From: Lachnospiraceae bacterium | GTDB taxonomy: Bacteria; Bacillota; Clostridia; Lachnospirales; Lachnospiraceae | NCBI GenBank assembly: GCA_021205305.1 | Contig: JAJPXU010000011.1 | Location: 10,553 to 74,552, forward strand | DNA: 64,000 bases | Direction: 5' to 3' | Shown here: positions 10,548 to 60,292 of the stretch, piece after piece | Position numbering within the stretch: the stretch's first letter is position 1 | How the letters are laid out: every line of letters starts with the position of its first letter | Translations under genes and position numbers: made by a program | Notes under the pieces: generated by a model | Told to the model about the DNA's origin: nothing | Seen by the model: only the letters and a program-made list of their open reading frames with translations | The model's database searches: none

Positions 10548-10576
10548 ATCCTACAACACTCCACACAATCCGTCAA
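10548..10576 (-). promoter_or_regulatory. Internal sigma-A-type promoter upstream of the aldolase
   Basis: TTGACG-17 nt-TAGGAT on the minus strand. Confidence 0.6.
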
Positions 10577-22202: not shown

Positions 22203-23765
22203 TCAATCCTCCAGTGACCGGAAATCGACATACCCCGTTGCCAGATCATCCGCGTAAATCAGATAGCTTCCGCCCTCCATGTTCAGATAGAGATACGGCA
22301 TCTCATCCACACGAACAATCCAGGCGACTGTAACCGTGACGGTCTCTCCTGCCAAAAGGTCGGTAATGTAATTGCTTCCGTTTGTTTCCTCTCCGCCGGC
22401 GGTATAATAGTCCATCGCATAGCCGCGGGGTATTGTCGCGTAATCCCAGTCACCCTCCTCAAGCGTGCTTCGGTCATAAATGGCTATCATGCCGTCCTCA
22501 TCCTCTGTCAGAGTGATCAGGTCTGCGTTATACAGAACATTGTGCAAGTCGGCCTCTCCGTTATTGGTATATTCAATGGTCGCGCAGATCAGCTTCTGTT
22601 CCGCTTCCTCCGTCTTTACCACGGTATTCAGAGAATTGACGCCGTCGCCTGCTTTCACGTAATCAATCTGCATCGGCAGCAGATTGCCGTCTTCGTCTGA
22701 ATACGTCTGCAGGTCATTGGTATAGATCCCGGAATCCAGTATGCTCTGCCAGTCGTCGCCCAAGGCGCTCATATTGTCTGACACCCAGACCCCGCTGACC
22801 CGGACACTGACCGTATGGAAAGACTCCTCATCTGCTTCACTATCCGAATAGGCAGATATCTCAAAGGAATCCCCGATCTGGTGTAGGTTTTCCTCCACAG
22901 CTGATGCTTCCACCGCCGTACAGGCGCCATCCTCCTCCGGATCATCGTCTATCTCTGGCAAATCATCTTCCTCGGGCAAGGCGTCCGCAAGGAGCGTTGT
23001 TTCTTCACTGCCGGTCACAATGAGTCCTTCCGCGACCGCAAGCAGCTCGTCCTTTGTCACTTTACCGCTCATTGAATAAATCCTGAGAATGCGCCAGACC
23101 TCCGGGTACAGGATATACAGCATCTGCGTCGTATTTTCAGAACCGTCATCCAGATACTCTTTTTCCAGCCAGACAGCGTAGTGACCGTTCAGCTCCAGTT
23201 CCTCGCTGTCCACCACATTGGTTTCCGAAATCTGCATTTCCGCGGGATTCTCACCCATGATCTCCTCTGCGATGCTGAAGCTTCCGCCCCAGAGATCGTC
23301 CTCGTAATCAATCTTCCAGCCGTCGTCGTACTGCACCATCCCCTCCGGGAGATAGGACGCTTCCACCGTCACACTTGCCGGAATCTCCTCCGGTACTTCC
23401 AGTTCGGCAAGCATCGCAGCCATCGAGCCTTCGGAGTCTGTCTCCGTCTCAGCTGAGCCGATGGTAATGTTTATTCCATAGTCTCCTTCTGTCTCTGTAA
23501 AAAACCGCGCTCGGATGGCAGTACCAGCCGCCACGGTCGTACACATGATGGCGGCAGCGGCGGCAACCAACAGAAACGTTTTTCCGGCCTTTTTCCGCCC
23601 TGTGCTTCTGCTTCGATTCTTTTGCGGATGCTCTGCCTTAGCATCGTCCAAATGCGCAGCGGAATGCGTTTCCACACTTATCTGCGATGCCACTTCACGC
23701 TCTATCATCGTTCGCATACTTTCCGGCATTTCCGGAAATTCTTCTCTCATATTTTCTAAGTTCAT
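22203..23765 (-). CDS. Membrane-anchored anti-sigma factor candidate with acidic extracellular region (DUF4367-like segment)
   Basis: Directly after the ECF sigma; short cytoplasmic N-terminus, one TM (FLLVAAAAAIMCTTVAAG), SYLPEGM motif. Confidence 0.65.
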   Translation of the reverse strand: MNLENMREEFPEMPESMRTMIEREVASQISVETHSAAHLDDAKAEHPQKNRSRSTGRKKAGKTFLLVAAAAAIMCTTVAAGTAIRARFFTETEGDYGINITIGSAETETDSEGSMAAMLAELEVPEEIPASVTVEASYLPEGMVQYDDGWKIDYEDDLWGGSFSIAEEIMGENPAEMQISETNVVDSEELELNGHYAVWLEKEYLDDGSENTTQMLYILYPEVWRILRIYSMSGKVTKDELLAVAEGLIVTGSEETTLLADALPEEDDLPEIDDDPEEDGACTAVEASAVEENLHQIGDSFEISAYSDSEADEESFHTVSVRVSGVWVSDNMSALGDDWQSILDSGIYTNDLQTYSDEDGNLLPMQIDYVKAGDGVNSLNTVVKTEEAEQKLICATIEYTNNGEADLHNVLYNADLITLTEDEDGMIAIYDRSTLEEGDWDYATIPRGYAMDYYTAGGEETNGSNYITDLLAGETVTVTVAWIVRVDEMPYLYLNMEGGSYLIYADDLATGYVDFRSLED

Positions 23766-26212: not shown

Positions 26213-28233
26213 ATTCCTGCAAGCAGATCTTCCATCTGGCGGCTTTTTTTCGTGAGTTTCCAAATAAGCACTGCAATCAGAAGCAGAAAAAACAGAATCA
26301 TGATTACTATCGTCACTGCCCACCACTGGTTTGAAGTACTCTCTTCCTCTGCTTCAATGGAAAGTTCCACCACCTGCGGTGCTGCGATTGTTGTGGTAAA
26401 TTCCCGCGTATCGGTGTAAACTGTCCCGTAAGCATCCTCCCAGGTAAGAGTAAGCGTCCCTGTTGTGGAACCATATGCAGTCTCAGCATTAACATCATTG
26501 GCAGTGTCGGAGGCTTCTGTTCCCTGCGACGATTCATCTTTATCGTTTAAATTACTGACATAAATCTTAATCGTCCCATCGTTGGAAGTCCCTGCTTCCA
26601 TGTTTCCGGCATAAACCGTGTTCGTTGCGATCAGTCCGTCCGCTTCCAAAGATACCTGTACATTGTAAACCGGTCCGCGCCCGGTATTGCGAACCTCCAG
26701 TGTCGCCGTTACTGTCTCCAACGAATACACAGAATCGGACAGGTTAAAATTTTCGATGGAAACCTGCGTTTCCTGGCTGATGTCAAAAAACAGTTCTTCC
26801 GAATCGCTTAAGGACGTTCCGTCCGAAGTTTCATACACGAAAGAATAGTTTAAAGCAGCAATTTTTTGTGTCGCTGCGGCTGAAGCGGCAATCGTGTTTT
26901 CCAGCGTGATCACTTCCTGCGGGGCAATCTGATCATAATAGTAAGAGGTGGATGAAAGCGCAACATTCTCATCTGCTGTATTTACCGTGATTTTCAGACT
27001 ATACACGGTCTGGTCATCGCTCGTATTCTGGAAGCTTGTGATAAAATCCATCTGCTCCCCTGCCGGAAGCAAAGCTCCGCTAAGTGAGCATTCTTTCAGC
27101 AAAATATGCGGCTGGTGCTTCACCGCACTGCTGCTTGCACTGCCACTGTAACTGCTCCCGGAAGAATAATACGTCGTTACAGCTTCCATTTCTGTTTCAG
27201 ATTCTGTCTCCGTTTCGGATTCTGTCTCCGTTTCGGGTTCCGATTCTGACCCGGATTCTGTCTGAAACTCCGGCTCTGGTTCCGTAACAATCAGCGCGTC
27301 CGTCTCTGATTCTGGTTCCCAATTCGTTTCGCTCTCTGTCTGTTGCCGGGAATCGGATTCCAGGGTCACTGTCATCCGGCAGGTCATCTCAGATTTCACA
27401 CCGGAAGCAGAATAAGCGACCGCTTTCACTGTAACCGGATACTGCCCTGACTGGTAATCATCCGCAAGTGTAAATTCAGCTTGAAAGAGGTATGCGTCCA
27501 CGCTTTCCAAAGTACCGTCCAGATGCGAAGCATTTTCCTCAATGGATGGCACCTGATAAGTCAGTAAAAACACTTCCTCCTCATACTCCGCCTTTTCAAA
27601 AGGGGAATCCAGAGCAGATTCCACCGTTACCGTCAGCTTATTCTCCAATACCGGAGCATCTGCCACAAATGGAATTACAAGAGAAACCGTATTTTCTTTT
27701 ATCGATGGAACATATCCCTCTATATAAGATAATTCCATTCCTTCATACACATGATATACATCAATAGAAAGAGAAATCTGTGAAAATTCTGCCCCTGCAT
27801 CCGAATTTCCAGTGTCTGCATTTCCCATATCGTCAGCTACAGAAGCAATCGTGCCTGTTTCGTTATTATACATCGTGTTTTCCTGATTGGTTATCGATTC
27901 CAAAGCAGAATCCGGAATAGCGGAGGACGGCACCTCTTCCATGCTGTCGATTTGGAGAGCCTCGCCATTCTGAATCGAGCTCTGCTCGATGGCGAGGCCT
28001 TCGTCCTCGATTCTCTGCGAGAATCGGGACATGTTTTGGAGAGCCTCGCCATTCTGAATCGAGCTTTGCTCGATGGCGAGGCTCTCTGTTTCCTGCCCTT
28101 CCAGCACAACCGCTTCCTCAGCCAGTGCAATCCAGCGGAAAGATACTACGGCCGAAGCAAAAACAAGGACAGCCAAAAAAGCTGCAAGTATCCTGTATCG
28201 TATGGCATTCTTCTCGCTGCTCATATACCGCAT
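26194..28233 (-). CDS. COG1361-like surface protein (signal/TM, Ig-like domains, C-terminal TM)
   Basis: N-terminal hydrophobic leader, QPHILLK...NTG..PVYNVQV..GNMEAG motifs, C-terminal WWAVTIVIMILFFLLLIAVLIWK. Confidence 0.7.
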   Translation of the reverse strand: MRYMSSEKNAIRYRILAAFLAVLVFASAVVSFRWIALAEEAVVLEGQETESLAIEQSSIQNGEALQNMSRFSQRIEDEGLAIEQSSIQNGEALQIDSMEEVPSSAIPDSALESITNQENTMYNNETGTIASVADDMGNADTGNSDAGAEFSQISLSIDVYHVYEGMELSYIEGYVPSIKENTVSLVIPFVADAPVLENKLTVTVESALDSPFEKAEYEEEVFLLTYQVPSIEENASHLDGTLESVDAYLFQAEFTLADDYQSGQYPVTVKAVAYSASGVKSEMTCRMTVTLESDSRQQTESETNWEPESETDALIVTEPEPEFQTESGSESEPETETESETETESETEMEAVTTYYSSGSSYSGSASSSAVKHQPHILLKECSLSGALLPAGEQMDFITSFQNTSDDQTVYSLKITVNTADENVALSSTSYYYDQIAPQEVITLENTIAASAAATQKIAALNYSFVYETSDGTSLSDSEELFFDISQETQVSIENFNLSDSVYSLETVTATLEVRNTGRGPVYNVQVSLEADGLIATNTVYAGNMEAGTSNDGTIKIYVSNLNDKDESSQGTEASDTANDVNAETAYGSTTGTLTLTWEDAYGTVYTDTREFTTTIAAPQVVELSIEAEEESTSNQWWAVTIVIMILFFLLLIAVLIWKLTKKSRQMEDLLAGMENLAD
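27952..28082 (-). repeat. In-frame A-B-A palindromic repeat mosaic inside the coding sequence
   Basis: Two 47-nt copies (27952-27998, 28036-28082; one mismatch, 84-nt offset) encode LAIEQSSIQNGEALQ twice around a CGATTCTC-GCA-GAGAATCG hairpin. Confidence 0.9.
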
Positions 28234-28313
28234 CCTCCTTCTTTCCTTTCAGCACTTTCCACGGGTACGTTCCTCTGTCTGATTTTCTATTCTTTCTGTA
28301 ATCTTTCTCATTA

Positions 28314-28430
28314 CATGTCCATGATTTGCGAAGCAAATCATGAACGAAGGCAATGTTCCGATTTTCGCAGAAAATCGAGAACGGTACCGAGCCATCGAGC
28401 GAAGCTCGATTTATAATGGCGAGGCTCTCC
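28314..28430 (+). repeat. Intergenic B-B-A palindromic mosaic
   Basis: ATGATTTGC-GAA-GCAAATCAT, CGATTTTC-GCA-GAAAATCG, ATCGAGC-GAA-GCTCGAT...ATGGCGAGGCTCTCC. Confidence 0.85.
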
Positions 28431-29061
28431 GCATCACGCCGCCATCCATCTCAAACACCCGGTCGCAAAGGATACGAATATCCTCACTGTTATGACTCGC
28501 AAGCAGGATTGTTTTTCCCTTTTGCTTCTGGGCAAGCAGCAGTCTGCGAATCTCCGCAACGCCATGGCGGTCAAGACCGTTAAACGGTTCATCGAGGATC
28601 AGAAGCTCCGGCTCTTCCATAATCGCCTGCGCAATGCCCAGCCGCTGCCGCATCCCCAGTGAATATTTTGCGACCGGCTTTTTCAATTCTGGATCAAGGC
28701 CGACACGCATAAGAACGGACGTGATTTCCTTTCTTCCGATCTGTCCACGCAAATCCGCCAGAATTTCCAGGTTTCTCCGCCCGCTTAAATTAGAAAGGAA
28801 TCCCGGTGTCTCGATGATCACCCCAAGGCTCTCCGGAAAGTCTACATCATAGCCAATCCGTTTCCCGCCAACTGTGATCTGCCCTTCCGTCACCGGCAGA
28901 AAACCGCAGATGCATTTCATGAGAACCGTTTTTCCGGAGCCATTGTTCCCACAGATACCGTAAGTCCTGCCCCGTTCCACTGCAAAATCCAGAGGTTTTA
29001 ACACTTCCTCCGCGCCAAAACATTTTCGCACATGGCGCAGCTGAATATAATAATCTGTCAT
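28411..29061 (-). CDS. ABC transporter ATP-binding protein (BcrA/LanF-like export type)
   Basis: Walker A GNNGSGKT, signature YSLGMRQRLG, Walker B LLILDEP, ASH; start MTDYYI. Confidence 0.93.
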   Translation of the reverse strand: MTDYYIQLRHVRKCFGAEEVLKPLDFAVERGRTYGICGNNGSGKTVLMKCICGFLPVTEGQITVGGKRIGYDVDFPESLGVIIETPGFLSNLSGRRNLEILADLRGQIGRKEITSVLMRVGLDPELKKPVAKYSLGMRQRLGIAQAIMEEPELLILDEPFNGLDRHGVAEIRRLLLAQKQKGKTILLASHNSEDIRILCDRVFEMDGGVMRRASPL

Positions 29062-43049: not shown

Positions 43050-43054
43050 CCTTT

Positions 43055-43085
43055 CCTGTCTTTTCGATGCTGTTCTGAACTGTTA
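43055..43085 (-). repeat. Family D left end between era and recO
   Basis: Reverse complement TAACAGTTCAGAACAGCATCGAAAAGACAGG matches 60153-60188 with a 5-nt gap. Confidence 0.75.
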
Positions 43086-43092
43086 CAACAAA

Positions 43093-44322
43093 TCATACAA
43101 GATCCGTCTTATCGTAGCCAAAATTTTTAATCATATAATCACTGTCGCGCCAGTCCTTCTTTACCTTCACCCAGAGCTGCAGATTGACCGGTTCTTCCAG
43201 CATCTGCTCAATTTCATAGCGCGCCTGTGAGCCGATTTTGCGCAGCATCGCGCCCTGCTTGCCGATCACCATGCCTTTGTGAGACTCTTTTTCGCAGATA
43301 ATCGTCGCCTCAATATCCATGATCCAGTCTGAAGTCTCACGCACATCCACTTCCGCCTGTTCACGGCGGCTGAGCGTATCATCCACATTCGTCCGGGTTT
43401 CCGTCAGCGTCCTTCCATTCTTTTTACCCTGGAAGTCCTTCCTCTCCTCATTCGGCAGCAAGCCAGGCTGCCCATTCTGCTCCACTTCTCGTGAGACAGT
43501 CTTTTTCGCATGTTCATGGCGGTGTTTCTTCCGCACGGCCTCGGCCCGTTTCTCCCTGTGCTTCTGGCTGCCCGCAGGCCGCTCCTTCATCACTTCGATT
43601 GAAACCGCGATCCCATGTGGAATCTCCTCCTCCATGCAGCGCAGCGTCTTCTCCCGGATCAGCTCCGCCACAATCTGTTTCTGCGGCTGGTCGGTCACGG
43701 TATCATCGTCGTAATATTTCGGTCCGTATGGCAGACAGCGGAATATTGCGCTGATCACCTCGTCCATATGCAGACCCCGCAGTGCGCAGACCGGTATCAC
43801 AGCATCAAAATCCAAAAGCTCCCGGTAGACATCCAGATAACGCGGAATCTCACTTTTCGCCACGGTATCCATTTTATTCAGAATCAGGATCACCGGAATC
43901 TTCGTGGAGCGGTATTGCCCCCTCCCTTCGGTCGGCGGCAGGTCGGGCTGCCCATTCCAATGCGCTGTGCGCGGGGCAGCCGCTCGGAGCATCTGCGCAA
44001 TATGCTGATCCCCTCCGCCAACCGAATCCGTCGGCTCAACCAGCCATAATACCACATCCACTTCCCGCAGCGTGGACTCCGCTGCCGTCACCATATATTC
44101 GCCCAGCTTATTTTTGGCCTTATGGATACCGGGCGTGTCCAGAAAAATAATCTGCCCCTGTTCGGAGGTATAAACCGTCTGAATCCTGTTTCGCGTCGTC
44201 TGCGGTTTGTTCGACGTAATCGCGATTTTCTGGCCGATCAAGTGATTCATCAATGTCGACTTTCCAACGTTCGGCCGCCCGATCAGAGTCACAAAACCGG
44301 ATTTAAAATTTGCGTTTTCCAT
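43093..44322 (-). CDS. era: GTPase Era with two unusual insertions
   Basis: GRPNVGKST, PQTTRN, DTPG, NKMD, KH-domain VIGKQGAMLRKIG; 409 aa. Confidence 0.97.
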   Translation of the reverse strand: MENANFKSGFVTLIGRPNVGKSTLMNHLIGQKIAITSNKPQTTRNRIQTVYTSEQGQIIFLDTPGIHKAKNKLGEYMVTAAESTLREVDVVLWLVEPTDSVGGGDQHIAQMLRAAAPRTAHWNGQPDLPPTEGRGQYRSTKIPVILILNKMDTVAKSEIPRYLDVYRELLDFDAVIPVCALRGLHMDEVISAIFRCLPYGPKYYDDDTVTDQPQKQIVAELIREKTLRCMEEEIPHGIAVSIEVMKERPAGSQKHREKRAEAVRKKHRHEHAKKTVSREVEQNGQPGLLPNEERKDFQGKKNGRTLTETRTNVDDTLSRREQAEVDVRETSDWIMDIEATIICEKESHKGMVIGKQGAMLRKIGSQARYEIEQMLEEPVNLQLWVKVKKDWRDSDYMIKNFGYDKTDLV

Positions 44323-48249: not shown

Positions 48250-48408
48250 GCAGCACTTCCTTTCCCGCTCTGTCCCCAAATTTTTCTATTTCCAAATTTT
48301 TCTGTTCCCAAATCTTTCTGACCCAGGTCTTTACGTGTTTCTTTTTATTTCATCTCCTGCATTGTCTCCAGGCTATAGTATCACAAAAAGGGGCTCTTGT
48401 AAAACAGA

Positions 48409-48521
48409 AATCGGACAGAATGTATGTTCACATTCTGTCCGATTATTGTCCATGATTTGCGCAGCAAATCGTGGACACAACCCTCGCCATCGCAGAGCAA
48501 TTTTAAATGGCGAGGCTTTCC
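48409..48521 (+). repeat. Intergenic C-B-A palindromic mosaic
   Basis: AATCGGACAGAATGT/ACATTCTGTCCGATT, TGTCCATGATTTGC-GCA-GCAAATCGTGGACA, CCTCGCCAT...ATGGCGAGGCTTTCC. Confidence 0.85.
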
Positions 48522-48550
48522 GAATGGTTATCCGCTTCTATTCTAATTCA

Positions 48551-51307
48551 TTATCTCTCACTTCTTCTTCTGCGGATAAATACAACCAGCAGAATAATGA
48601 AGATCAGGCAGGCCACGACCGCCACTGCCGCTACTGCAAGGAGCGGGGTCGAATCGCCGGTCTCTACGGATTCAAGCGAAGTCACAATATTGAATGTGAC
48701 TGAGGTCGTAGATGTCGTTCCATCCGCCACCCAGGAGCTGCCGTCATAAACCTGTCTCGCAAACGTCACATTCAGCGTATACTCACCGGTCGACTTGATC
48801 GACATCGAGGTCTCATACGGAGATGATGACCAGGTATTGGAAACATTGCCAATCGAATATCCCGTCGGTACATAGCGGATGTCGCCCGGATTCGGGTTGG
48901 TATTTGACATACCTGCGCCCACCGGCGTAAAGGTAAGCTTCTCATTTGCCACATAAGAGCCGCCCGAGGTGATACCACTGATGTAGTTATCCGATGCAGT
49001 CGGGCCATCCTCATAGGTTGCTGAAACAGTTACATCGCTTGCCGGCATCGTGAAAGACGTCGTTGCTCTGGACGCATCCGCAAATGTCACATTGCCGCTC
49101 GTCGCTGTCCATGTACTGAATTCCTTCCCGCTCGCCGGATAATTCGAGGAAATGGTAACCGTATCCCCATAGTAATAATAGGTCTGGCTTGTGCTGCCAT
49201 TTTCCACTGTAACTTTATACTGTACCTGCTTATAAACGGCCGTCAGAGTCACATTTGCGGACGGCATCGTGAAGGTCGTCGCAGAAGCAGACGCATCTGT
49301 GAGAGTCACATTCTGCGTATCTACCGTCCAGTAATCAAAGGCATAGCCCGCAGCCGGTTCCGCAGCTGTAATTGTAATTACTGTCCCTGCAACACTCTCG
49401 GTATAATCGGCCGTGCCGTTTGTCAGGGTGACACTGTAAGTCACACCCGTATAATTCGCCACAAAAGTCATATCCTCTGTAACTGTCACCGTAATGGTAG
49501 AGGAAGCCGCGTCATCGCCAAGATCATACGCACCGTCATTGACCGTCCAGCCGGAGAATTCCTCCCCGCTCGCACTCGCGTTTGCCGTTACAGTTACCTG
49601 TGTACCTTCCTCATAAGAATGCTCAGTATAAGAACCGTCCAGGAGACCGTTGGAAACCTTTACCGTATACGTATTCGGCAGGCTTACATAAACCGCCGTA
49701 ACTTCCACATCACCGTCCGGCATTGTAAAAGTGGTCGTCGCTGAGGTTTCATTTGCGAATGTCACTTCCGTCGAACCGGAATTCGACCAGTGATCAAACT
49801 CCATCCCTTCCGGAGCTGTCTCAGCGGCAATGCTCACGGTACTGCCGTACTCAAATGTACCTGTGGTCGCACCTGAACCGGTCGTCCCACTGACTACTGT
49901 CACTGTGTGGGTAGCCACATCAAAGATCGAAGAAAGGGATACCTCCCCCGCCGGCATCGTGAATGTCCATGTTCCGTCGCCAACAGCGGTCAGGGTAATC
50001 GCCGCGTCATTCGTAATCATCCAGCTGGAAAATACCGTTCCGGCAGAAGCTGCCGGCTGCGCTACTGTCACCGTATCGCCAACCGCGTAATTACCTACGA
50101 GTGTGCCATCCACAGTCACCGCGTACGTTGCCGCTGTCTCAGACTCTGTAGCCGTCTCAGATTCTGCCGCCGTCGTCTCAGCAGCTGCCGCTTCATCTGT
50201 CACATCAATCACTACGATATCTTCTGCATTCTCCGCCGTATAGCTGGCCAGGATCGTTACATTCTCCGACGGCATCGTAAAGGTGATCGTCTGCTGCGTC
50301 AAATCCTCCAGCGCCACATTCAAAGAGGCTACGTACCAGGAAGAAAATGTATAACCATCCAGATCTTCTGCGGTTAAAGTAACCGCAGCACCCTCCGCGT
50401 AGGTAACGGTCTCTGTCTTCGCATATTCGTCCGCGCCTGTATCATAATTTACCGTCAGAGCCGCATAGACAATATCTGCTGCCGCAGGGGTGTCATCGCC
50501 AATCACTACCACCTCCGTGGAAGCAGGCGCAGATGTCTCTGCTGTTACATTAGAACTGCCGGAATCCGTCACCGCTGCCGTTGTCTCCGACTGGCTTTCA
50601 ACAACCGCATTTGAATTATCGACGGCTGCTCCCGTCTCCGTTTCTTTCACTGCAATCTCCTGATAGGTTGCGGTAACCGTCATTTTCGTACCAGGCATAG
50701 TAATGGTCGTCTCAGCACTGGACGGATCGGTAATCACTACATCATCCTCTGAGTCAATCACCCATTCCACAAACTCATAGCCCTCATCCGGATCCGCCGC
50801 CGTGATCGTCACAGTCTCGCCGCTCTGGTAATACGCGATATCTTTACTCGGATCCTCTTCCGTCATGGCAGCTTTTTCTTCATCCGTGAATTTGTAATGA
50901 TTCTCCGTCGTCGCACCCTGTTCTGATGTCCATGCAGACACGGATGTACCATCCACCACAGTCAGAACATAGCCTGCCGGAGCCAGCTGGATCGATGCGG
51001 GAGTGACCGTACCATCCTCCGCATTCACAGCCTCCGTATAAGTCACCTGATAAACCGTGTCCTTATCCTCAGGATTCGTCCAGGTGCCATTCTCCGCACT
51101 AAGCGTTCCTTCCTCATTTGTAATCGAAATCACCGTGCCGTCCGCAATCCCTGTCAGGCTGTCGCCCGGGAAAAGCACCGTCTTCTGCTCATTTGCGTTC
51201 ACAGCAGAAGCTTCATAAGAAGTCGCCGCCATCACCTGCGCCGCCGGAACGCACCCCATCACGCAGCAAAGCAGCAGGCTCAGAATCTTTCTCTGCATTT
51301 TTTTCAT
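48551..51307 (-). CDS. Cell-surface protein with about seven divergent InlB-B-like repeats and a sortase-like anchor
   Basis: Signal peptide; repeats VTITA....GY.F..W......T.FTMP..DVTVTA.Y; C-terminal VETGD, TM and RRRR. Confidence 0.85.
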   Translation of the reverse strand: MKKMQRKILSLLLCCVMGCVPAAQVMAATSYEASAVNANEQKTVLFPGDSLTGIADGTVISITNEEGTLSAENGTWTNPEDKDTVYQVTYTEAVNAEDGTVTPASIQLAPAGYVLTVVDGTSVSAWTSEQGATTENHYKFTDEEKAAMTEEDPSKDIAYYQSGETVTITAADPDEGYEFVEWVIDSEDDVVITDPSSAETTITMPGTKMTVTATYQEIAVKETETGAAVDNSNAVVESQSETTAAVTDSGSSNVTAETSAPASTEVVVIGDDTPAAADIVYAALTVNYDTGADEYAKTETVTYAEGAAVTLTAEDLDGYTFSSWYVASLNVALEDLTQQTITFTMPSENVTILASYTAENAEDIVVIDVTDEAAAAETTAAESETATESETAATYAVTVDGTLVGNYAVGDTVTVAQPAASAGTVFSSWMITNDAAITLTAVGDGTWTFTMPAGEVSLSSIFDVATHTVTVVSGTTGSGATTGTFEYGSTVSIAAETAPEGMEFDHWSNSGSTEVTFANETSATTTFTMPDGDVEVTAVYVSLPNTYTVKVSNGLLDGSYTEHSYEEGTQVTVTANASASGEEFSGWTVNDGAYDLGDDAASSTITVTVTEDMTFVANYTGVTYSVTLTNGTADYTESVAGTVITITAAEPAAGYAFDYWTVDTQNVTLTDASASATTFTMPSANVTLTAVYKQVQYKVTVENGSTSQTYYYYGDTVTISSNYPASGKEFSTWTATSGNVTFADASRATTSFTMPASDVTVSATYEDGPTASDNYISGITSGGSYVANEKLTFTPVGAGMSNTNPNPGDIRYVPTGYSIGNVSNTWSSSPYETSMSIKSTGEYTLNVTFARQVYDGSSWVADGTTSTTSVTFNIVTSLESVETGDSTPLLAVAAVAVVACLIFIILLVVFIRRRRSER

Positions 51308-53606: not shown

Positions 53607-54501
53607 CTGTCATACCCCCGTTCTCTCCATATAACCGCAGTGCCTCATCCATCTGCCTGATGCAGCGCTGTACCTCCAGCTCCCGCATCCTGGCTGTTTC
53701 GCTTTTCCCCTGCTTCAGAGATTTCAAAACGTTCTCCTGCGTCGCACGTTCATGCAGCATAAACTGACGCAAAACAGGATGGCGCATTTCCAGCAGCCTG
53801 GGGCCAAAAAGCAGCTCTGTCTCACGCATCGCTGAACCCAAAGGGTACCATTTCGCTTTCATCATTGGATAATACTTTCCGTCCTCGAAAATCATATCCT
53901 CCCGCACGATTTTCCATCCGTTTTGCTCTAACCAGGAACGCACCAGCGAAATTTCCGACTGAGGCTGCAAAATCAGCTCTGTAGTGCTTGCCAAACACGC
54001 AGTGCTTGCCAAACGCGCAGCGTTTCTTAAATTGCAAGCGCGATCTGCCCTCGCCGGGTGGCATCCTCGCCCTTCGGGCGGGATATCCGCCGAAGCGCAG
54101 CGAGGGGGCGTTTCCAAAGCATTTCCTAAATCGCCGACGCGATGCTCCCCTGTCTGAATTACACCGTCCTTCCTCCCGTTCTCCAGAATTCGAATCGTCA
54201 GTGCGCCGCCCATCCCGGCAATCACTATACTCTGTGCCTCATTCGGCGCAAATGCCTTCAGGCCATCGGAAAGCCTGGTCTCGATTTTTTTTTCCAGAGC
54301 GTGTTCCCGGATGTGCGCGTCAGCACGCGCAAGCGGACCGCGGTTGATATCCGCCGCGATTGCGCGCGGGATAATCTGCTGTTCCATCAGATAAATCGGT
54401 ATGTATGCATGGTCCGTCCCGATGTCCGCAAGGACAAGCCCGGGCGTCACCATGTCTGCGACTGCCGCCAGTCGTTTTGATAACTGCATAAAATCCTCCA
54501 T
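53599..54501 (-). CDS. trmK: tRNA (adenine22-N1)-methyltransferase with a large insertion
   Basis: DIGTDHAYIP, RLSDGL, IAGMGG, ILQPQS; follows rpoD. Confidence 0.93.
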   Translation of the reverse strand: MEDFMQLSKRLAAVADMVTPGLVLADIGTDHAYIPIYLMEQQIIPRAIAADINRGPLARADAHIREHALEKKIETRLSDGLKAFAPNEAQSIVIAGMGGALTIRILENGRKDGVIQTGEHRVGDLGNALETPPRCASADIPPEGRGCHPARADRACNLRNAARLASTACLASTTELILQPQSEISLVRSWLEQNGWKIVREDMIFEDGKYYPMMKAKWYPLGSAMRETELLFGPRLLEMRHPVLRQFMLHERATQENVLKSLKQGKSETARMRELEVQRCIRQMDEALRLYGENGGMTDG

Positions 54502-60132: not shown

Positions 60133-60158
60133 CTCTTTTCATACATTTTCGTTAACAG

Positions 60159-60259
60159 TTCAGAACAGCATCGAAATGAAAAGACAGGTGCTGAGCGCCA
60201 GTGGCGCTCGCTTAGCGCCGACCGAAGCGAAGCGTAGACCTGTGGCCTGCTGTTCTGAA
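60159..60259. repeat. Family D element, longest copy
   Basis: TTCAGAACAG...CTGTTCTGAA ends; internal GAGCGCCA-G-TGGCGCTC hairpin and CGCCGACCGAAG. Confidence 0.78.
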
Positions 60260-60292
60260 TAGTTACCATTTTCGATATAACATATGCTGCGC

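Follow-up and report, generated by a model that had tools for sequence, protein, structure and literature searches.

Rickettsia palindromic elements (RPEs) are short palindromic repeats that occur in frame in many unrelated, often essential genes (PMC10969869). With a size of about 100–150 bp and one conserved peptide per family, they add peptide segments at tolerated sites in the proteins of an alphaproteobacterial intracellular parasite, and no enzyme is known to mobilise them. REP/REPIN sequences with their RAYT partners and the elements derived from IS200/IS605 are hairpin-centred, display compensatory variation in their stems and have neither terminal inverted repeats nor target duplications; single-stranded DNA is presumed to be their active form, and REPs are extragenic. 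[quoted passage not shown] The GA-cis motif (RF02987), which is listed in the Rfam 15 paper (PMC11701678) and originates from the survey of Weinberg et al. 2017 (PMC5737381), is placed by Rfam among the candidates for small or cis RNAs; that survey does not mention it in its main text, and the searchable literature does not describe it behaving as a repeat within genes. Here, we report a GA-cis copy inside the gene for the GTPase Era of an uncultured Lachnospiraceae lineage represented by a metagenome-assembled genome (MAG). The gene lies in a stretch of 64,000 nt (positions 10,553 to 74,552 of contig JAJPXU010000011.1, assembly GCA_021205305.1; hereafter, the window), and the genome that carries it, G000, comprises 3.12 Mb in an assembly that is 91% complete. 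The copy is best filed as a known Rfam motif with a behaviour that is new for it, namely, that of RPE-type selfish DNA in coding genes.

Era is usually about 300 residues long, and the protein encoded in the window is longer (Table 1). When the protein was aligned with 28 orthologues of its genus and order, a 25-residue insertion emerged at residues ~114–138 (the RAAAPRTAHWNGQPDLPPTEGRGQYRST region), between HIAQML and KIPVILILNKMD and ahead of the NKMD of the G4 motif, where a preliminary description of this DNA had noted about 25 extra residues. The segment is unique to G000 among the aligned orthologues; sharing of its peptide by orthologues, which that description had considered as a point against an origin from a repeat, was not observed. 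A second extra segment, of 80-odd residues in the KH domain, is common to six close species, and the alignment of the protein to solved Era structures is interrupted at 113/138 and 246/328. At the DNA level, the first segment amounts to 75 nt net when the gene is aligned with orthologues that include those of G021 and G015. In the AlphaFold2 model, computed from 42 aligned sequences, residues 119–139 have a predicted local distance difference test score below 50 and no secondary structure, and this low-scoring segment sits between the helix 103–114 and the strand 144–148 that leads to NKMD. We take the insert position to be the strand end that faces away from the nucleotide pocket in the Era fold. 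In the model, the insert is a disordered surface loop, and its position, where a helix gives way to the strand toward G4, accounts for its being tolerated; most simply, it is a passenger. The intact reading frame suggests that the insert is translated, and the presence of a single intact era gene in G000, together with the predicted disordered loop, suggests that the lengthened Era may be functional; the filled protein is predicted to yield the candidate tryptic peptide TAHWNGQPDLPPTEGR.

The inserted tract is almost certainly a copy of the GA-cis family. It matches the complete RF02987 model (positions 1–88 of 88) at 43907–43987 with 49.4 bits (E 2.5e-9), that is, above the gathering cut-off of 34.7, and the match also passes the gathering threshold in a search of the whole window. 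Moreover, a family hidden Markov model (HMM) built without the era copy recovers that copy at E 2.6e-12, and a sensitive blastn search of the genome with the 84-nt era tract returned about 20 partial matches elsewhere, all laid out alike. The tract has the two-hairpin architecture of GA-cis, its tandem G-A pairs and its GCCGCCGA...GAGGGGGC boxes. GGGCTGCCC (43945–53) pairs with GGGCAGCC (43974–81), consistent with the GCTGCCC/GGGCAGC stem pointed out earlier; the tract folds into this 8-bp stem around a small inner hairpin, CGCGC-ACA-GCGC(A) (~43961–43972), plus a second hairpin. The inner loop, GCACAGC, is a degenerate form of the family sequence GCGNAGC, the canonical GNA loop being lost. 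The conserved 3' module encodes DLPPTEGRGQY and holds a 12-mer, CGCCGACCGAAG (43926–43937), which within GA-cis represents the conserved GCCGCCGA box followed by the C-CGAAG-G mini-hairpin. If 'cis' in the name is read as a same-strand position upstream of a gene, the era copy departs from it, as it lies inside a coding sequence. In other genera, the canonical copies that were examined begin with AGGAGG...ATG and occupy intergenic positions just upstream of genes, whereas the copies in the clade of G000 have AG and a GC-rich stem at their start and a length of 75 or 78 nt, and they lie mostly within open reading frames (ORFs), in both orientations.

The anatomy of the family was derived from 75 distinct copies from three species. 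In this clade, a copy starts with AG, followed by a 9–10-bp stem (stem 1) around a small hairpin with the loop GCGNAGC and then by a loop of ~8 nt, and it ends in a strongly conserved module composed of GACCTGCCGCCGA, the mini-hairpin N-CGNAG-N' with tandem G-A on its flanks, and GAGGGGGCGTTTCC plus 1–3 nt; 32 of the 75 copies are 78 nt long and 23 are 75 nt long. Stem 1 is represented by 56 different sequences and is paired in 96.7% of cells, compared to 65.6% with shuffled partners (maximum 69.6%), with three to four Watson-Crick pair types at each position. The closing pair of hairpin 2 covaries as well (GC 27, AT 21, CG 18), the inner loop is GCGNAGC in 67/75 copies, and stem 1 of one orthologous copy differs between species by a compensatory change of T-A to C-G. 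The possibility that stem 1 is copied anew from the target at each insertion was rejected: stem sub-lineages are linked by stepwise compensatory changes, and the clean insertion at locus L136 has a stem that is found elsewhere. GCGNAGC is an extraordinarily stable mini-hairpin as DNA and far less stable as RNA (PMC13037366). Both the inner loops and the N-CGNAG-N' hairpin 2 of GA-cis resemble d(GCGNAGC), although the latter is a structural motif rather than an element family, and the era copy carries CCGAAGG, the mini-hairpin reported in the priming signal ssiA (PMC13037366). The presence of mini-hairpins suggests that the DNA strand, not RNA, is the folded species. A long GA-cis variant has an extra hairpin module of ~37–45 nt at CTGCC/GCCGA, with at least seven long copies among the Rfam matches (window 54050–54086; C125:42879–43000 in G000; other matches of 122–134 nt on contigs C93, C72, C172, C14 and C112).

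GA-cis is patchily distributed over Lachnospiraceae, being found in 16 of the 300 genera sampled, and 46 copies in G000 are above the cut-off. In a 41-genome sample of relatives, seven species are rich in copies (G000 48, G021 40, G019 38, G010 36, G015 26, G018 25 and G001 18), three further genomes have 2–3 copies and 30–31 have none; the copy-rich sub-clade is the one that also carries the KH insert of Era. In this clade, GA-cis behaves like selfish DNA able to persist in genes: with a length that is a multiple of three and mostly no stops, it resides in many unrelated ORFs in either orientation. In G000, 29 of the 39 copies defined by a regular expression are enclosed by ORFs of 200 aa or more and have no fewer than 20 aa to either side (18 antisense, 11 sense), and ORFs of at least 200 aa likewise enclose 26 of the 38 copies at the G021 and G015 loci. 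The coding copies use all six frames and both orientations, and a single antisense frame, (M/V)E(T/A)PP(R/H)...ENA..., accounts for 28 of 55; there, the element starts with ATGGAAAC. Real hosts, with Pfam domains detected on both sides of the element, are ValRS, PheRS-beta, a GH2 beta-galactosidase (three copies), an aminotransferase, an FeFe hydrogenase, a GH94 enzyme, an IMP-cyclohydrolase-like and a ComF-like protein, and two ABC ATPases. Head-to-tail arrays of two to three units with 2–5-nt spacers are also found in ORFs (C170:506–730 and C23:11556–11870 in G000; loci L046, L142 and L147), and one tandem array coincides with an assembly gap (run of N).

Empty-site era alleles were sought and found in two sister lineages with 99% identity in Era once the insert is set aside, namely, P0002 (GCA_021205755.1) and P0003 (two JGI metagenomes), and the site is also empty in G021, G015 and all other alleles compared. 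The empty allele reads ATGCTC CGCAGCCTG AAGATT and the filled one ATGCTCCG(AGCGG...CAATACC GCTCCAC)GAAGATT. Divergence of the era DNA from the empty allele is flat at 4.3%, save for four bases at the junction, and a recombination tract around the insert was rejected on this ground. The era copy arrived after the lineage had split from its closest sampled relatives. When the copies of G021 and G015 were compared with G000 (60 loci sampled), five further filled/empty pairs were recovered (Table 1); presence/absence polymorphism at orthologous sites is thus seen in era and five other pairs. Seven orthologous copies are common to different species, with 95–100% identity.

Table 1. Features of the era locus, other GA-cis copies in the window, and filled/empty pairs at other loci (positions are those of the window)
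Feature	Position	Strand	Length, sequence or make-up	Evidence and remarks
era gene (GTPase Era), host of the insertion	43093..44322	-	409 aa	ORF and translation; Pfam MMR_HSR1 and KH_2; one match in genome G000
Tract missing from empty-site era alleles	43904..43984	-	81 nt in place of 6 nt (CAGCCT); net +75 nt = 25 codons	Alignments with orthologues and with empty alleles L131-L135
GA-cis element proper in era	43911-43984	-	74 nt, AG...CAATACC	
Junction filler in the era tract	43904-43910	-	7 nt, GCTCCAC	
era stem 1	43945..43983	-	Coding-strand 5' arm GCGGCTGCCC pairs with 3' arm GGGCAGCC(C)	Folds, family alignment, pair counts
era conserved 3' module	43911..43944	-	GACCTGCCGCCGA-C-CGAAG-G-GAGGGGGCAATACC; hairpin 2 with tandem G-A pairs	Rfam and family alignments
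Probable worn-out second GA-cis copy, Era KH-loop insert	43432..43497	-	NGQPGLLPNEER	Same orientation and frame as the first insert; in G021 and P0002/P0003 lineages
GA-cis copy in TrmK-like gene, read antisense	54001..54117	+	Split at CTGCC/GCCGA by 37-nt nested module (54050-86) encoding PPEGRG	
GA-cis remnant, 5' half only	27513..27551	+		Family HMM, E 0.0076
GA-cis remnant with internal deletion	23640..23676	+	AGCATCGTCCAAATGCGCAGCG/GAATGCGTTTCCAC	Filled/empty comparison, L148 vs C35:34192-34228
Filled/empty pair L136/C112			78 nt, AG...TTTCCAT	Flanks 98% identical, no duplication; cleanest pair
Filled/empty pair L044			75 nt	AG ambiguity
Filled/empty pair L048			78 nt	10-nt repeat
Filled/empty pair L153			78 nt in place of 3 nt	
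Filled/empty pair L031			77 nt	

Very probably, then, the era insert is an RPE-like mobile, selfish repeat that sits in frame in its host gene. Like RPEs, GA-cis is found in frame and free of stops in many unrelated genes, adds peptide segments at tolerated sites and has no known mobilising enzyme; it is half their size, belongs to free-living gut Firmicutes and uses all six frames. The likeness is one of function, and kinship in sequence is not expected. With REP/REPIN and IS200/IS605-derived elements, GA-cis shares the hairpin-centred layout, the compensatory variation of the stem and the lack of both terminal inverted repeats (in the family alignment, its ends are AG... and ...GGGGGCGTTTCCAT) and target duplication (none in the cleanest pair, L136/C112). 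By contrast with these elements, it lies mostly within genes and shows a weak strand bias (30:16 relative to GC skew in G000, p = 0.054), and the Y1 HUH transposase, PF01797, was found in none of G000, G021 and G018 (100% complete), three genomes with 25–48 copies; a RAYT or IS200 partner was rejected for that reason. Like MITEs, GA-cis is small, non-autonomous, dispersed and probably sometimes translated, but neither terminal inverted repeats nor duplications of fixed length were seen. A blastn search against phage and plasmid collections gave no matches to the element.

Several observations weigh against the insert being a mobile repeat. It is known from one MAG contig, and the folding energy of the era tract is unremarkable (z = -1.05 as RNA and -0.6 as DNA), so the structural evidence rests on the family and not on the single sequence. 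The 3' junction in era differs from the empty allele at four of five adjacent bases, including a switch of a serine codon from AGC to TCC; given these changes and the 6 nt lost, 81 nt replaced 6 nt, with no clean cut-and-paste. Even the paralogue closest to the era copy has a global identity of 77% (87% over 61 nt), a close donor being absent from the assembly; the median nearest-paralogue identity in G000 is 0.83, and no donor above 80% identity was found for the L048 copy specific to G021. Recent copying within a genome is therefore not demonstrated, and the family seems to be old, with slow turnover; judging from the sequences, the donor of the era copy would lie outside the 91%-complete assembly. 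No mobilising enzyme was found in the three copy-rich genomes named above, and the cleanest pair, L136, has no microhomology. The exact run shared by the head of the element and its flank averages 2.14, compared to 1.34 +/- 0.09 in permuted pairs; this excess favours microhomology, but it is partly due to tandem or partial copies. Finally, the depletion of stops is modest, with 4.33 open frames per element against 3.1 in shuffled and 3.84 in GC-matched genomic sequence, and strong purging of stop codons was rejected.

The tract might instead be a functional cis-acting RNA, kept in the era mRNA for regulation, with the peptide as a by-product. Such a role would fit the conserved structure with its covariation, the compensatory change at an orthologous locus and the position of copies in other genera, where a same-strand gene has its Shine-Dalgarno sequence 1–5 nt downstream of them. 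However, the orientation relative to the host is mixed in this clade, with antisense copies outnumbering sense ones, the canonical GNA loop is gone from the era copy, the closest relatives manage without the tract, and GCGNAGC hairpins are much stabler as DNA than as RNA (PMC13037366); we consider a regulatory RNA very improbable. Since the filled allele is present on a single contig or cluster member, it could also have arisen as an assembly artefact, with a repeat copy spliced into era in a metagenome contig. Yet the reading frame is kept exactly, insertions of the same type are found in independent assemblies of related species, and the era copy, being at most 87% identical to any other copy in the assembly, was not borrowed from another locus, which leaves the artefact with hardly any probability.

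Two further origins involve repeats in the window itself. The first insert and the older KH-loop insert of Era contain 37-nt stretches (direct-repeat family D20) that are 480 nt apart, 78% identical and in the same frame (NGQPDLPPTEGRG versus NGQPGLLPNEERK), and the first insert could thus be an intragenic duplication of part of the other rather than an independent arrival. Against this, the first insert, with its intact stem, inner hairpin and 3' module, fits the family far better than the KH-loop copy, whose near-full-length match to the family HMM (positions 8–74) has an E of 0.055 in a search of the whole window. As a decayed copy, the latter cannot be the template of a better-preserved one, and the similarity of the two is explained if both are family members, so that duplication is very improbable. 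The preliminary description, for its part, had tied the era insert to an intergenic repeat, family D, by means of the 12-mer CGCCGACCGAAG, which is indeed identical at 43926–43937 (minus strand) and 60216–60227 (plus strand). The word is not at background frequency, either: it occurs 33 times in 3.12 Mb, where ~0.36 occurrences are expected, a 90-fold excess. Furthermore, family D and GA-cis both have a stem with an inner hairpin, then GAC...CGAAG. But once all 33 sites were lined up with 70-nt flanks, ~29 turned out to belong to one intergenic family with the consensus GGCGCTGAACGTCCAGTGGACGTTCGCTTAG-CGCCGACCGAAG-CGAAGCGTAGAC, and these long flanks are absent on both sides of the era copy; the era site and two other coding sites have nothing in common with family D beyond the 12 bases. 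It is GA-cis with which the era tract aligns over its whole length, and for family D, Rfam gave no match. Family D was therefore rejected as the source, and derivation of the insert from it is extremely unlikely; the earlier view that a dispersed hairpin repeat had entered the coding sequence holds, with GA-cis in the place of family D. The peptides PPTEGRG in the era insert and PPEGRG in the TrmK insert, which had been seen as echoing each other, are both encoded as described, and the TrmK insert is also GA-cis, but it is read antisense, and its PPEGRG derives from the nested 37-nt module and not from the stretch that encodes PPTEGRG. The family HMM matches the TrmK copy in two halves, 54004–49 (E 2.7e-8) and 54087–116 (E 1.7e-4), and the Rfam match is weak (24.7 bits). 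The long copies in the TrmK and beta-galactosidase genes have the same nested module and PPEGRG peptide, and both encode ...ETPPRCASADIPPEGRGCHPARA....

Taking the era insert as a mobile repeat, we propose that GA-cis may move by annealing- or microhomology-assisted copying of single-stranded DNA, perhaps via head-to-tail or circular forms and probably without a classical transposase. A copy mechanism of this kind is possible, if tentative, and is suggested by the two GNA-type mini-hairpins, the lack of an orientation rule, the head-to-tail arrays and the occasional 8–12-nt identity between head and target. A strict replication-strand rule was rejected, given the orientation ratio quoted above despite a very strong GC skew. 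The GC skew of G000 is unusually strong (mean absolute value ~0.15 in 20-kb windows), so that even a short MAG contig allows the leading strand to be told from the lagging one. Several copies are trailed after 2–5 nt by their own first 8–26 nt or by full tandem copies, and the head-to-tail arrays look like circle or rolling-circle junctions. The 10-nt repeat that flanks the L048 insertion, TCAGCAGCTG, also occurs natively in the gene of G015, G018 and G000, all of which are without the insert, implying that the target resembled the element head before insertion; repeats of the head of 9–10 nt are present at L039 and L151. Genus G108 has 14 canonical copies (loci L182–L195), all intergenic and hardly different from one another. 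Each starts with AGGAGGAAAC...ATG, comprising the Shine-Dalgarno sequence AGGAGG, 7–8 nt, and an ATG that opens a 7-codon mini-ORF (MNEVHFL and a stop), and 12 of the 14 are followed at 1–5 nt by a Shine-Dalgarno-like sequence that belongs to a downstream gene on the same strand; one of the other two is trailed by a degenerate tandem copy, and one is without a Shine-Dalgarno-like sequence. This pattern suggests insertion targeted to the Shine-Dalgarno sequence or a regulator of the leader-peptide type. A more specific and quite doubtful idea is that GA-cis folds as single-stranded DNA and selects its landing site by the similarity of its first 8–12 nt (the 5' arm of stem 1) to the target. Canonical AGGAGGAAAC heads would then land 1–5 nt before a Shine-Dalgarno sequence and the GC-rich heads of this clade in coding DNA that is itself rich in GC, the variable stem would serve as an address that is inherited and can mutate, and, if true, landing before Shine-Dalgarno sequences would explain the cis-regulatory look of the motif. 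The head repeats at L048, L039 and L151 and the location of the 12 G108 copies are consistent with this idea; the L136 insertion, which has no head/target identity, and the failure to find an enzyme count against it.

An orphan Rfam motif thereby gains an identity, as GA-cis RNA acts as an in-gene selfish repeat in at least one Lachnospiraceae clade. RF02987 matches within ORFs should not be annotated as small RNAs, nor should genes lengthened or split by GA-cis be taken to contain novel domains. Selfish DNA of the Rickettsia type in protein genes is extended to free-living gut Firmicutes, with era, valS and pheT among its essential hosts, and the filled and empty alleles represent natural experiments on the tolerance of loop insertions. 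Strict 3' conservation, a covarying stem, DNA-type mini-hairpins and no known transposase make GA-cis a tractable case for a new mobilisation route.

Besides the copies in era and the TrmK-like gene, the window contains two GA-cis remnants (Table 1); in G015, the site orthologous to the one with the internal deletion is occupied by a full 78-nt copy. Family D at 60153–60270 (plus strand), with ~30 copies in G000, has the look of a MITE-like repeat in its own right. Inverted ends, TAACAGTTCAGAACAGC...GCTGTTCTGAATAGTTA, mark its limits, and one such end (43050–43085) is located just past the era stop codon; the resemblance of family D to GA-cis is a loose one of layout. Another palindromic repeat family (GGAGAGCCTCGCCATTCTGAATCGAGC...), distinct from GA-cis, is found at 27949–28445 and 48404–48540 in direct and inverted copies (D13, I1, I2, I4 and I5). 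Degenerate GTCTC/GATTC repeats with a 12/18-nt period (families D1, D4 and D8) are located at 650–900, 27180–27290 and 50130–50170 and probably encode low-complexity linkers rich in Ser, Asp, Thr and Glu on the minus strand.

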